20,192 nucleotides of DNA from a virus (taxonomy: Duplodnaviria > Heunggongvirae > Uroviricota > Caudoviricetes), in the IMG/VR virus record IMGVR_UViG_2537561937_000013, positions 1 through 20,192 of that record; one strand, written 5' to 3'. The notes below the pieces were generated by a model. The model searched no databases, was not told the origin of the DNA, and saw nothing but the letters and a program-made list of their open reading frames with translations. Of the stretch, positions 6,846-10,908 are shown in pieces. Position 1 is the stretch's first letter. Every line of letters begins with the position of its first letter. Both the position numbers and the translations under genes were made by a program.

Positions 6846-7277
6846 ATGGCAAAAGTATTTACACAAGAAGAGCGGGAAAAAATTAAAGGGCAGGTTGTTG
6901 AGCTAGTACGCCGGAGTGGGCGCGAGACGTTACGGCAACTGGAAGCCAAGACAGGTGCGACAAGATATCTGATGAGCGTTCTCGCCAGAGAGCTGGTTGC
7001 CAGTGGCGATGTATACAACTCTGGTTACGGGTTATTCCCGTCTGAACAGGCTCGTAAGGACTGGCAAAATGCCCGCAAAAAACTATCCAGGGCAAAGGTG
7101 AAGAAACCATCTGTGGTTGATCCGGACCTTATCTGGTCATTACCAGACGGAGAAATACGCCGCTACGACAGGCGTCTGAACATAATCTGTCGCGAGTGCC
7201 GGAAGAGCGAAGTTATGCAGCGTGTGCTGGCGTTTTATCAGAATGGTTTTCGAGAGAGGCTTGGAGATCAGGGATGA
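6846..7277 (+). CDS. Hypothetical phage protein (143 aa)
   Basis: Track ORF opens at TTG 6831. ATG at 6846 is preceded by GGAGG at about 7 nt. Basic, cysteine-containing protein with no recognised family. Confidence 0.6.
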   Translation: MAKVFTQEEREKIKGQVVELVRRSGRETLRQLEAKTGATRYLMSVLARELVASGDVYNSGYGLFPSEQARKDWQNARKKLSRAKVKKPSVVDPDLIWSLPDGEIRRYDRRLNIICRECRKSEVMQRVLAFYQNGFRERLGDQG

Positions 7278-7495
7278 ATAGAACGATGAAGGATGGAAGC
7301 TACATATTCTCGGTACTAAGATTTATTTTTCTGACACAAAATGACCATTTGGCGTTACATAATCCCAAAAAAACGTATCAAAAATCTCAAAATGCGTTAC
7401 GATTAGAGAGTATTTTGATTCTGCGTGCTCATTTTTTGATTGCTGTGGCTTTTTGTTGTGGGAGTGTTGAATGGATTATTTATCAGAAGTGTTAA
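7274..7495 (+). CDS. Possible small protein (73 aa) bridging the phage gene and the ATPase gene
   Basis: ATG at 7274 overlaps the stop of the 6846..7277 gene (ATGA) with GGAG 7 nt upstream. The frame stays open through an AT-rich stretch and ends 25 nt inside the ATPase gene. Hydrophobic C-terminal half. Could equally be non-coding leader. Confidence 0.25.
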   Translation: MNRTMKDGSYIFSVLRFIFLTQNDHLALHNPKKTYQKSQNALRLESILILRAHFLIAVAFCCGSVEWIIYQKC

Positions 7496-8625
7496 AAATC
7501 ATTGAAGGTGCAACAAAGGCAAATGCTTCGATGGCTAGTAATTATGCTGGGTTGCTGGCAGATAAGCTCGAACAAAAAGGGGAGGTCAAGCAAGCCAGAA
7601 TGATAAGAGAAAGGTTGCTTAGAGCTCCCCAGGCGTTGGCAGGAGCTCAAAGGGCTGGAGGTGGGATATCTCTGGGCTCATTACCGGTAGATATTGATAG
7701 TCGACTCAACACTGTTGATGTCAGTTATCCTAAATTAGACAGTTCAGAGATTTTTCTGCCTGCAGCAATCAGTACCCGTGTTGAAGAGTTTATCACTAAT
7801 GTTCAACGTTATGATGAGTTTGTTAAAGCTGATGCAGCATTGCCGAGTCGTATGCTCGTGTATGGAAAGCCAGGAACAGGTAAGACTATGTTATCTAAGT
7901 ACATCGCTACCCGCTTAGATTTTCCACTTCTTACAGTGCGTTGCGATACTTTGATTAGTAGTTTATTGGGACAAACCAGCAAAAATCTTAGACAGGTTTT
8001 CGATTATGTAATGCAGAGGCCATCAGTGCTTTTTTTAGACGAATTTGATGCTTTAGCTGGAGCAAGAGGTAATGAGAGAGATATAGGTGAGCTTCAGCGA
8101 GTTGTCATTTCACTATTGCAGAATATGGATGCGGCATCAGAGGATACGGTAATTATTGCCTCAACTAACCATGAGCAACTTCTGGATCCTGCAATCTGGA
8201 GGCGATTTAGCTTCAGAATTCCAATGCCTCTGCCTGACATACATCAGAGAGAGTTAATTTGGAAAAATCGTTTAAAGAATATGATATGTAGCGATCTAGA
8301 TTTAAGTGATTTATCAAGAAAATCGGAGGGATTATCCGGAGCAATAATTGAACAGGTGAGCTTGGATGCACGTAGGGATGCAGTTATTGAAGGTGCAAGT
8401 GTGATAAATCACCATAAATTGTATAGGCGTTTGTATCTTGCGCAATCGCTTATGGAAGGTGTAAATTTAAGCACTTACGAAGATGAAATTCGTTGGTTAC
8501 GTTCTAAAGATAAAAAATTATTTTCTATCAGAGTTCTTGCTAATTTGTACAAACTTACATCAAGAGTAATTTCAAACATTCTGAAGGAGTCAGGAGCATA
8601 TGAGCAGAAGGGGTACACAGTTTAG
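7471..8625 (+). CDS. AAA+ ATPase (classic AAA clade), upstream partner of the S8 protease; IetA-like architecture
   Basis: 384 aa. GGGAG RBS. Walker A GKPGTGKT (K138, nt 7864-7887), Walker B LFLDEFD, sensor-1-like IIASTN, Arg-finger-like AIWRRF. AT-rich codon usage distinct from flanking phage genes. Confidence 0.9.
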   Translation: MDYLSEVLKIIEGATKANASMASNYAGLLADKLEQKGEVKQARMIRERLLRAPQALAGAQRAGGGISLGSLPVDIDSRLNTVDVSYPKLDSSEIFLPAAISTRVEEFITNVQRYDEFVKADAALPSRMLVYGKPGTGKTMLSKYIATRLDFPLLTVRCDTLISSLLGQTSKNLRQVFDYVMQRPSVLFLDEFDALAGARGNERDIGELQRVVISLLQNMDAASEDTVIIASTNHEQLLDPAIWRRFSFRIPMPLPDIHQRELIWKNRLKNMICSDLDLSDLSRKSEGLSGAIIEQVSLDARRDAVIEGASVINHHKLYRRLYLAQSLMEGVNLSTYEDEIRWLRSKDKKLFSIRVLANLYKLTSRVISNILKESGAYEQKGYTV

Positions 8626-10864
8626 TAACGCAAAAGTTACAAACCCAATGTTAAGAATCCCTTTTTCCAGTAGTGACTTGGGTGCAATAGTAAACGCTGG
8701 CGGTGGGGCAAAGGTATTGGTTGATGTAACAGCCGAATATAGACAAGGGCTAGTAAGAAATTTAACAACCAGTAAACATTATTTAGAATCCAAACTTTCA
8801 GAGTACCCTGGAAGCTTGGGTACTTTGGTTTTCAAATTAAGAGACCAGGGAATAGCCAAAACGCATAGGCCGAACAAAATTGCTCAAGAGGCTGGATTGC
8901 AAAATGCCGGTCATGCCAAAATAGATGAAATGTTGGTTGCTGCTCATGCCGGCTGTTTTGACGTATTAGAGTCAGTCATTTTACATCGGAATATTAAAGC
9001 GATTTTGGCTAATCTAAGCGCGATTGAGCGCATTGAACCTTGGGATGAGAATAGGAAGGTTCCAGGAGGCACTGATGGTTTGTTTGAATCATCAAACATC
9101 CTTGTACGACTATTTGAGTACACAGGTGAAGATGCAACTTACAACAACTATGAAAACGTTATTTCTATATTAGAACAACACGGAGTTAAATATGATGAGA
9201 TTAGACCAAAATGTGGTCTTCCCTTATTAAGGATAATGGATTTATCCCCAAATGATAGATATATATTAGACATTCTCATTGATTACCCGGGTATAAGAAC
9301 GTTAATTCCAGAACCAAAATATTCAGCATTCCCGGTTAGTGTAAGTGATTCTGTTGGCATTGAAACAAATAGCTTTCCCGTACCATCAGAAGAATTACCC
9401 ATTGTTGCTGTATTTGACACTGGGGTAAGCCCCATCGCGGCAACAATTACTCCTTGGGTAGTGAGTAGGGAAACATACGTAATTCCTCCTGATACGAGTT
9501 ATGAACATGGGACTATGGTGTCTTCATTGATATCAGGCGCTCATTTTTTAAATGACAATCATCCATGGATTCCTGATACAAAATCTAAAATCCATGATGT
9601 TTGTGCTTTAGATGAAAATGGATCTTATATATCAGATTTAATTCTGAGGCTAGCAGATGCTGTAAATAAAAGACCAGATATAAAAGTCTGGAATTTGTCT
9701 TTGGGAGGCGGACCATGTAATGAGCAGATGTTTAGTGATTTTGCGATGGAGTTAGATCGGCTCAGCGATAAATTTGGTATTTTGTTTGTAGTTGCTGCAG
9801 GTAATTATGTAGATGAACCTATACGTACATGGCCAAATCCTGATCCGCTTGGAGGTGCTGATTTAATTTCCTCTCCTGGAGAGTCAGTCCGAGCACTAAC
9901 AGTTGGTTCAGTTTCTCATATGGAAGCTAATGATGCTTTAAGTGAAATTGGAACACCGACACCATATACTCGTCGTGGCCCTGGGCCTGTATTTACTCCA
10001 AAGCCAGATATAATCCATGCTGGCGGTGGGGTTCATAGACCTTGGAATGTAGGAGCAAGCAGTTTAAAGGTCGTAGGGCCAGATAATAGGCTTTGCTCTA
10101 ATTTTGGTACTAGTTTTGCTGCTCCAATTGTGGCAAGTTTAGCTGCGCATACATGGCAGAGAATAGCCACTAATTCAGACTTTAATGTTTCACCATCATT
10201 GATTAAAGCATTATTAATTCATTCCGCTCAATTATCTTCTCCTGATTACTCGCCAAGTGAAAGACGCTATTTGGGAGCGGGAATTCCTAATGAGGTTATT
10301 GAGACCTTATATGATAGTGATGATAGGTTTACTCTGATTTTCCAAACATTCTTGGTTCCTGGGGTGAGGTGGAGAAAGGAAAACTATCCCATACCATCGG
10401 CACTTATTCAAAATGGAAAATTTAAAGGTGAGATTGTAATTACTGCTGCATATGCACCACCACTGAACTCTAATGCCGGCAGTGAATATGTTCGCGCGAA
10501 CGTAGAGCTAAGTTTTGGCTTAATTGAGAATAATACTATAAAAGGAAAAGTACCTATGGAAGGAGAAAACGGTCAATCTGGATATGAGAGAGCTCAAATT
10601 GAGCATGGTGGAAAGTGGTCACCAGTAAAAATTCATCGCAAGGCATTTAATAAAGGAATTACTTCGGGTAACTGGGCTCTTCAAGCTAAAACAACGTTGA
10701 GAGCGAATGAACCGGCCTTAATGGAGCCTTTACCTGTAACTATTGTAGTAACTTTAAAATCATTAGATGGAAACACACAAGTTTATGCTGATGGCGTAAG
10801 AGCTTTAAATGCTAATAACTGGGCTCACTATCCATTGCCTGCTCGTGTGCCAGTTTCCGTATAA
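8600..10864 (+). CDS. Subtilisin-like serine protease (peptidase S8), cytoplasmic, with extra N- and C-terminal domains; IetS-like architecture
   Basis: 754 aa. AGGAG RBS 5 nt before ATG. Start overlaps the ATPase 3' end by 26 nt. Catalytic motifs in D-H-S order: VFDTGVS (Asp273, nt 9416-9418), HGTMVSS (His303, nt 9506-9508), GTSFAAP (Ser505, nt 10112-10114). No N-terminal signal peptide. Confidence 0.9.
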   Translation: MSRRGTQFSNAKVTNPMLRIPFSSSDLGAIVNAGGGAKVLVDVTAEYRQGLVRNLTTSKHYLESKLSEYPGSLGTLVFKLRDQGIAKTHRPNKIAQEAGLQNAGHAKIDEMLVAAHAGCFDVLESVILHRNIKAILANLSAIERIEPWDENRKVPGGTDGLFESSNILVRLFEYTGEDATYNNYENVISILEQHGVKYDEIRPKCGLPLLRIMDLSPNDRYILDILIDYPGIRTLIPEPKYSAFPVSVSDSVGIETNSFPVPSEELPIVAVFDTGVSPIAATITPWVVSRETYVIPPDTSYEHGTMVSSLISGAHFLNDNHPWIPDTKSKIHDVCALDENGSYISDLILRLADAVNKRPDIKVWNLSLGGGPCNEQMFSDFAMELDRLSDKFGILFVVAAGNYVDEPIRTWPNPDPLGGADLISSPGESVRALTVGSVSHMEANDALSEIGTPTPYTRRGPGPVFTPKPDIIHAGGGVHRPWNVGASSLKVVGPDNRLCSNFGTSFAAPIVASLAAHTWQRIATNSDFNVSPSLIKALLIHSAQLSSPDYSPSERRYLGAGIPNEVIETLYDSDDRFTLIFQTFLVPGVRWRKENYPIPSALIQNGKFKGEIVITAAYAPPLNSNAGSEYVRANVELSFGLIENNTIKGKVPMEGENGQSGYERAQIEHGGKWSPVKIHRKAFNKGITSGNWALQAKTTLRANEPALMEPLPVTIVVTLKSLDGNTQVYADGVRALNANNWAHYPLPARVPVSV

Positions 10865-10877
10865 CAACTATATAAAT

Positions 10878-10908
10878 CAAACCCGCTGTAGCGGGTTTGA
10901 TTTATTTG
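10878..10908 (+). terminator. Rho-independent terminator closing the ATPase-protease operon
   Basis: Stem AAACCCGC / GCGGGTTT with loop TGTA, followed by a T-rich tail (gatttatttg). Begins 14 nt after the protease stop. Confidence 0.6.

Follow-up and report, generated by a model that had tools for sequence, protein, structure and literature searches.

What is an ATPase gene, overlapped at its end by the gene of a subtilisin-like protease, doing in the early region of a lambdoid prophage? The question is raised by a stretch of DNA of 20,192 nucleotides, the whole of which we call the window, running from position 1 to position 20,192 of IMG/VR virus record IMGVR_UViG_2537561937_000013, and which is a Rac/lambda-like prophage. 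A first-pass annotation, made from the letters of the DNA without database searches, had seen in the pair a candidate anti-phage defence system, had likened it to the defence pair IetA/IetS, and had kept in reserve the idea of an undescribed system associating an ATPase with a protease. The cassette is almost certainly a canonical IetAS (IteA/IteS) system that rides as cargo in a Rac/lambda-like prophage of Escherichia coli; taking identity and function together, it is very probably such a system acting in defence against phages. IetAS is already known, and its genes are already annotated in public E. coli genomes. Because PGAP and PADLOC already name both of them, the consequence for annotation is slight; what is added here is of modest size, namely the exact boundaries of the cargo, a joint shared with the terminator of hok genes, the diversity of cargo in the slot and a hypothesis on how the protease is built.

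Identity of the gene pair

The cassette and its borders comprise four features.

7241 to 7470, plus strand: left cargo junction and AT-rich untranslated leader of ietA; homology with the prophage of strain TO217 ends at about 7240, and the AT-rich leader proper spans 7278 to 7470
7471 to 8625, plus strand: ietA, 384 amino acids, ATG start, an AAA+ ATPase of the classical clade (RefSeq product WP_000385105.1, 'anti-phage ATPase IteA')
8600 to 10864, plus strand: ietS, 754 amino acids, ATG start, a cytoplasmic serine protease of the S8 (subtilisin-like) family
10872 to 10905, plus strand: intrinsic-terminator hairpin, located by a terminator scan 8 nucleotides past the ietS stop, and doubling as the recombination joint at the right end of the cargo

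The two genes lie on one strand, ietA first, and the calls of open reading frames (ORFs) bear out the overlap of 26 nucleotides noticed at the outset. The start of the ATPase gene had to be moved: it had been placed at 7274, a position which opens an ORF of 73 codons in another frame, and the true start at 7471 was already implied by the first-pass annotation's own numbering of the Walker lysine, K138. We did not retain the 73-residue ORF (7274 to 7495) as a gene; it matches no family, its place is in the AT-rich leader and RefSeq leaves it unannotated, and one phage record labels it 'kinase (fragment)'.

Family profiles carry the identification. IetA matches the PADLOC profile PDLC02196 with an E-value of 8.9e-143, residues 1-374 falling on positions 1-371 of 374, and IetS matches PDLC02197 with an E-value of 4e-300, residues 12-753 falling on positions 3-748 of 749. 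The curated cut-offs of the NCBIfam equivalogs are likewise exceeded, with 526.6 bits for IetA against NF042959 (IteA_antiphage, cut-off 510) and 1040.7 bits for IetS against NF042956 (IteS_antiphage, cut-off 900). PADLOC and Pfam searches, which had been proposed as a check on the first reading, returned all four of IetA, IetS, AAA and Peptidase_S8, and this placement in a family rules out the undescribed system held in reserve. Moreover, the DNA from 7200 to 11000 is 100% identical in the chromosome of E. coli TW10722, whose two genes bear the RefSeq names iteA and iteS, the 'Ite' of NCBI being the 'Iet' of the literature with two letters transposed. At NCBI, a cluster of 1093 sequences named 'S8 family anti-phage peptidase IteS' has this exact IetS protein at its head; PHROGs contains families for both proteins, each labelled 'unknown function'. 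Every feature by which IetAS is recognized in sequence is found here: both profiles over their full length, the two genes adjacent and in the expected order, and catalytic residues intact.

Catalytic residues and cellular location

The motifs announced for the ATPase are all in place. IetA matches the Pfam AAA family at 2.6e-30 and displays a Walker A motif GKPGTGKT with K138, a Walker B motif FLDEFD with D190 and E191, a sensor-1 residue N233 and arginine fingers R244 and R245, all of which are kept in four homologues of 60-77% identity. Its nearest solved structures are the D2 domains of p97/VCP. Outside the AAA domain, Pfam scans of residues 1-125 and 310-384 with E-values up to 5 returned nothing. 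A helix-turn-helix was considered at the stretch FSIRVLANLYKLTSRVISNI and dropped, a PDB sequence search with the C-terminal 65 residues having given it no support.

In IetS, the Peptidase_S8 domain spans residues 268-544 in Pfam, with D273 in a DTG motif, H303 in HGT and S505 in GTSFAAP; the triad that had been read as intact is indeed so, and together with N402 of the oxyanion hole it is invariant in 75 homologues of 50-84% identity. The protein had also been taken to be intracellular for lack of a signal peptide, and hydropathy agrees: neither a hydrophobic segment near the N-terminus nor a transmembrane-like one was found in IetA or IetS, the highest Kyte-Doolittle mean over 10 residues near the N-terminus being 1.1 and no window of 19 residues exceeding 1.5.

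These observations bear on the most prosaic account of the locus, that of an ordinary phage or housekeeping protease, involved in morphogenesis or secretion, or else of a remnant in decay that plays no part in immunity. It might be invoked from a phage record that labels the genes merely 'cell division protein' and 'S8 family peptidase', and from two E. coli genomes in which iteS is disrupted. Against it, neither a signal peptide nor a membrane segment was found, the cassette occupies a cargo slot of the early region, outside the structural module, both frames and all catalytic residues are intact with copies at least 99.5% identical in 78 genomes, and both proteins pass curated models of defence families. 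We consider this account extremely improbable. Its narrower form, a secreted housekeeping protease, was rejected on the absent hydrophobic N-terminus and on the gene contexts in Klebsiella, Pseudomonas and Burkholderia.

Predicted architecture of the protease

Outside the catalytic domain of IetS, Pfam scans of residues 1-265 and 546-754 returned nothing with E-values up to 5, and a PDB sequence search found no solved structure of an IetS relative, its best match being a generic subtilase at 9e-6. An AlphaFold model of IetS was built from the 75 homologues (predicted local distance difference test, pLDDT, 86.4; predicted template modelling score, pTM, 0.89), with the N-terminal 262 residues also modelled separately (pLDDT 81.6). 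In this model, the catalytic domain comes after ferredoxin-like modules and is followed by a beta-rich domain. By the order of helices and strands, the N-terminal 260 or so residues comprise a long helix (45-68) followed by two beta-alpha-beta-beta-alpha-beta modules. Several proenzymes align to the model well beyond the catalytic domain, among them pro-subtilisin E (3whi) over 316 of 355 residues and ProN-Tk-SP (3afg) over 366 residues. The predicted fold class is compatible with a propeptide rather than proof of one, as ACT domains and ribosomal protein S6 score as well as propeptides against the N-terminal model. The position of the modules, ahead of the catalytic domain, fits an IetS that would be a cytoplasmic zymogen.

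A proposed mechanism of restraint and release

How might the pair then work? We propose that IetS is a zymogen-like subtilisin-like protease of the cytoplasm, with ferredoxin-like modules of the propeptide class ahead of its catalytic domain and a beta-rich domain behind it. In the uninfected cell, IetA, made from the overlapping upstream gene, would spend ATP in keeping IetS harmless, behaving as an antitoxin. During infection, a phage protein would upset this restraint, and the freed IetS would cut cellular or phage proteins, with the result that the infected cell would cease to support the phage, as in abortive infection. We hold this scheme tentatively, at slightly less than an even chance. 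Papers on other members of the family are the source of its toxin and antitoxin roles, of abortive infection and of a phage protein as trigger; the zymogen, as well as the manner in which IetA restrains it, we infer here.

The papers in question provide several elements. On plasmid pTiC58, IetS is the toxin and IetA the antitoxin, and a homologous pair of SGI1 is a working toxin-antitoxin system (PMC5006074). A homologue of Bacillus cereus acts as an abortive-infection system: it becomes toxic once yosG of phage SPbeta is expressed, and cultures collapse at high multiplicity of infection (10.1101/2022.08.27.505566). In the ietHAS variant, defence needs protease activity, and an ietA mutant resisted cloning (PMC13069673). 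The same paper, of 2026, still calls IetAS's mechanism against phages unknown.

The fold of the N-terminal modules also lends itself to the converse scheme, in which IetS is an inert zymogen and IetA, acting upon infection as sensor and motor, switches the protease on by removing or unfolding its propeptide-like modules. These modules are indeed of the propeptide fold class and stand at the position of a propeptide, and IetA falls in the classical AAA clade, whose protein remodellers include p97, the proteasomal ATPases and FtsH. Yet IetA has been reported as an antitoxin, and ietA mutants as uncloneable (PMC5006074, PMC13069673), which argues that IetA holds IetS down. The ATPase itself adds a further objection.

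Pore loop 1 of threading AAA+ motors typically carries an aromatic residue. In IetA this loop (residues 163-169) reads SSLLGQT, devoid of any aromatic residue and invariant across homologues from E. coli, Klebsiella, Pseudomonas and Burkholderia. All in all, activation by IetA seems to us quite unlikely, and IetA, given its loop, might act as a clamp or remodeller, not as a threading unfoldase.

Restraint and release by IetA in the service of defence, the reading that we prefer, has to be weighed against several points. The pore loop just described sits poorly with a classic unfoldase threading its substrate. The case for defence at the window locus is built from sequence and from models. The characterized systems of pTiC58, SGI1 and B. 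cereus probably belong to other subfamilies of IetAS. Closer to home, E. coli ietAS is frequently borne by prophages, and the copy of strain ECOR52, when tested alone, gave limited protection against a panel of 29 phages (10.1101/2022.08.21.504612). Finally, a sigma-70 consensus scan of the leader (7278-7470) gave no promoter, so that expression in the lysogen is conjectural; in the leader of Klebsiella the eye picks out a good TTGGCA-17-TATAAA site, and an insertion of 13 nucleotides breaks it in the window. In the alignment, a block of the leader (7367-7403) is conserved with the ietAS loci of Klebsiella. What the window locus itself offers is its identity, its intact catalytic residues, a pairing that recurs across genera and a setting as prophage cargo; the resistance to phages is read across from papers on other copies and would apply here by analogy.

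A cargo slot shared with hok genes

Why should such a pair be found at this place? The genes around it are those of a lambdoid early region, and confirm that the cassette is inserted between a replication module and a nin-like module.

Left part of the window, in order: exonuclease, dicB, DicF, repressor, cro, ydaT, O-like gene, DnaC-like gene, DUF1627, DUF977, then ietAS
After ietAS, in order: small ORF, DUF968 (HNH), RusA, antiterminator, DNA methyltransferase, two transfer RNAs (tRNAs), IraM, SASA esterase, lysis genes
10880 to 11270, no strand assigned: 'post-hok' segment, about 390 nucleotides of AT-rich non-coding backbone, the right bound of the slot and outside IetAS
Slot intervals compared: 7241-11270 in the window; 7485-8856 in locus L003; 2939-4932 in locus L004; 2605-4899 in locus L006

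PHROGs names the DUF977 protein, encoded just upstream of ietAS, a 'Ren-like exclusion protein', which puts the cargo at the equivalent of the ren/nin junction of lambda. The contrast in base composition that had been noticed for the cassette is clear, with 39.6% guanine plus cytosine between 7278 and 10990 against 51.5% in the left flank and 52.0% in the right flank. The region had further been described as one where cargo commonly lodges, and its relatives agree. In strain TO217, a sister prophage runs collinear with the window on both sides, and carries queH and hokD between the positions equivalent to about 7240 and about 11214; in other relatives the slot holds either small ORFs together with hokD, or the gene of a 689-residue P-loop ATPase of the Sll1717 family, which may be a defence gene itself, along with a truncated hok. 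The site after the Ren-like DUF977 gene is a hotspot for cargo.

The right border deserves particular attention. The hairpin at 10872-10905 has 15 base pairs, an energy of -26 kcal/mol and a z-score of -6.4 relative to shuffled sequences, so it is as strong as had been claimed. It was also claimed as the cassette's own, and this part of the claim has to be given up: its core, AACCCGC-loop-GCGGGTT, aligns along with the U-rich tail to the terminator found 3' of hokD in four other prophages, with which the cassette thus shares it. Homology with these other prophages resumes inside the hairpin, which limits the DNA specific to ietAS to about 7241-10880. As the alignments read, the cassette has replaced everything from the last 37 nucleotides of the Ren-like gene through to the hok terminator. 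The post-hok segment is always directly downstream of hokD or of what replaces it, and is present, at a coverage of at least 80%, in 740 of 5426 E. coli genomes, nearly tenfold the 78 that have ietAS. Terminator-like and promoter-like sites are seen within this segment at 10999-11026, 11121-11138 and 11191-11221. This locus is a clean example of a defence system swapped as a unit at a single lambdoid slot, from the Ren-like gene to the post-hok segment.

That the slot of sister prophages should hold hokD, a type I toxin gene, and that ietAS should replace it exactly to its terminator, suggests another role for the pair. The cassette might be mainly an addiction module, stabilizing the prophage by post-segregational killing, with phage defence as a secondary property: a stable protease toxin, kept in check by an ATPase antitoxin that must be ever active, would punish those cells that lose or silence the element. 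History is on the side of this view, as the earliest description of IetAS was of a toxin-antitoxin pair that stabilizes a plasmid, and the homologue of SGI1 aids maintenance of the island (PMC5006074, PMC13069673). However, members of the family display measurable anti-phage phenotypes (10.1101/2022.08.27.505566, PMC13069673), some copies lie away from mobile elements, as on a Burkholderia chromosome, and the roles of addiction and defence are compatible with one another. We judge it unlikely that addiction is the main role.

It is nevertheless possible to bring these threads together with the scheme of restraint and release. The N-terminal modules of IetS would then be a switch, operated by IetA as a clamp or remodeller, and the cassette would also have taken over the addiction role of hokD, by recombination within the hok terminator. 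The conjunction is doubtful, and we would not count on it as a whole; if true, it would provide a concrete and testable structural model of how IetAS works. In any event, the propeptide-like modules of IetS and the non-aromatic pore loop of IetA supply specific mutants with which to approach the mechanism.

Distribution and mobility

Among 5426 complete E. coli genomes, 78 contain the ietAS coding DNA, always as a single chromosomal copy with at least 99.5% identity, and the phage record vB_EcoS-683R6 has it at 99.6%. In two of the 78, H133 (NZ_AP040205.1) and H134 (NZ_CP196120.1), iteS is annotated as split into an 'S8 family peptidase' and a 'hypothetical protein', which suggests that the protease gene is occasionally inactivated.

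Full-length relatives of IetS (748-771 amino acids) are found well beyond E. coli, in Morganella, Klebsiella, Leclercia, Providencia, Pseudomonas, Aeromonas, Erwinia, Ralstonia, Burkholderia, Comamonas and Achromobacter. A comparison of gene neighbourhoods had been suggested from the start, and it yields the same overlapping pair in Klebsiella, Pseudomonas aeruginosa and Burkholderia, where the AAA gene is immediately upstream of the S8 gene with overlaps of 26-53 nucleotides. Identity of IetA in these three loci (77, 61 and 60%) tracks that of IetS (74, 56 and 53%). Their settings are diverse: the Klebsiella copy, at 74% identity, lies in another lambdoid prophage, at the corresponding slot; that of P. 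aeruginosa is found amid Fic, NERD and AAA_15/AAA_21 genes, beside an integrase-like gene; and the Burkholderia copy is chromosomal and outside mobile elements.

The cassette is 100% identical to that of TW10722, whereas the entire window finds its best match in strain WP7-S17-ESBL-04 (92% coverage, 98.0% identity). In phage record 683R6, the cassette stands ahead of a different nin/Q module. This mismatch and this difference in context indicate that the cassette moves between lambdoid backbones.

Other features of the window

Several further elements were noted along the prophage.

1444 to 1495, minus strand: DicF antisense RNA (Rfam RF00039, 76.7 bits), beside dicB as in prophages of the Qin/Rac type
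14385 to 15434, plus strand: DNA methyltransferase gene after the antiterminator gene, further cargo
15484 to 15559, plus strand: phage-borne tRNA, Met (CAT) according to ARAGORN and tRNA-Ile according to RefSeq
15660 to 15736, plus strand: second phage-borne tRNA, Arg (TCT)
16433 to 16622, plus strand, and 16648 to 16983, minus strand: small RNA STnc100 (RF02076, 132 bits) and the adjoining anti-adapter gene iraM, in the late region
17229 to 19097, plus strand: gene of a 622-residue carbohydrate esterase of the SASA family, just upstream of the holin gene, further cargo

Both tRNA genes are downstream of the antiterminator and methyltransferase genes; if the RefSeq call holds, the first would be a lysidine-type decoder of AUA codons. 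Strain TW10722, with its identical ietAS, has neither the SASA esterase gene nor the DNA methyltransferase gene.

Comparison with known systems

Placed among regulated proteases and immune systems, the window pair meets several more or less remote likenesses. Its modelled N-terminal region recalls the pro-subtilisins and the propeptides or inhibitors of I9 type (3whi, 3afg, POIA1 1v5i_B and the prodomain of PCSK9), from which IetS differs in being cytoplasmic and in that no Pfam I9 match was found. With the Trip13/Pch2-like AAA+ regulators of CBASS (cyclic oligonucleotide-based anti-phage signalling systems), it shares the idea of an AAA+ ATPase that negatively regulates an immune effector, as an analogy of mechanism only. 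An assignment to CBASS was considered and rejected, as the neighbourhood lacks HORMA, cyclase and effector genes and the PADLOC TRIP13 model matches IetA weakly and in second rank (2.4e-16), the IetA profiles scoring 400 bits higher.

Comparable, too, are the pair IetA/IetS of pTiC58 and the pair SgiA/SgiT (S026/S025) of SGI1, which associate an ATPase antitoxin with a subtilisin-like protease toxin, in the same gene order and on mobile elements (PMC5006074). They differ in that they were described as stabilization modules, not as defence systems. The S8 proteins compared, from Agrobacterium and Rhizobium plasmids, have 25-27% identity with IetS over 58-63% of its length, the N-terminal third being uncovered, from which the pTiC58 and SGI1 pairs are probably distant relatives, of one superfamily of systems but of another subfamily. 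The variant ietHAS (Liu-DS4), with its SNF2-family helicase, has the IetA-IetS core in common with the window, protease-dependent defence being a feature of ietHAS (PMC13069673). No helicase gene adjoins the pair in the window, where it has the Ren-like DUF977 gene on its upstream side and, downstream, non-coding DNA. It is finally with the IetAS (IteA/IteS) anti-phage system, credited in PMC13069673 to Gao et al. 2020, that the correspondence is complete: two-gene order, overlap, profiles, catalytic residues and prophage setting are shared, and no defining feature differs.

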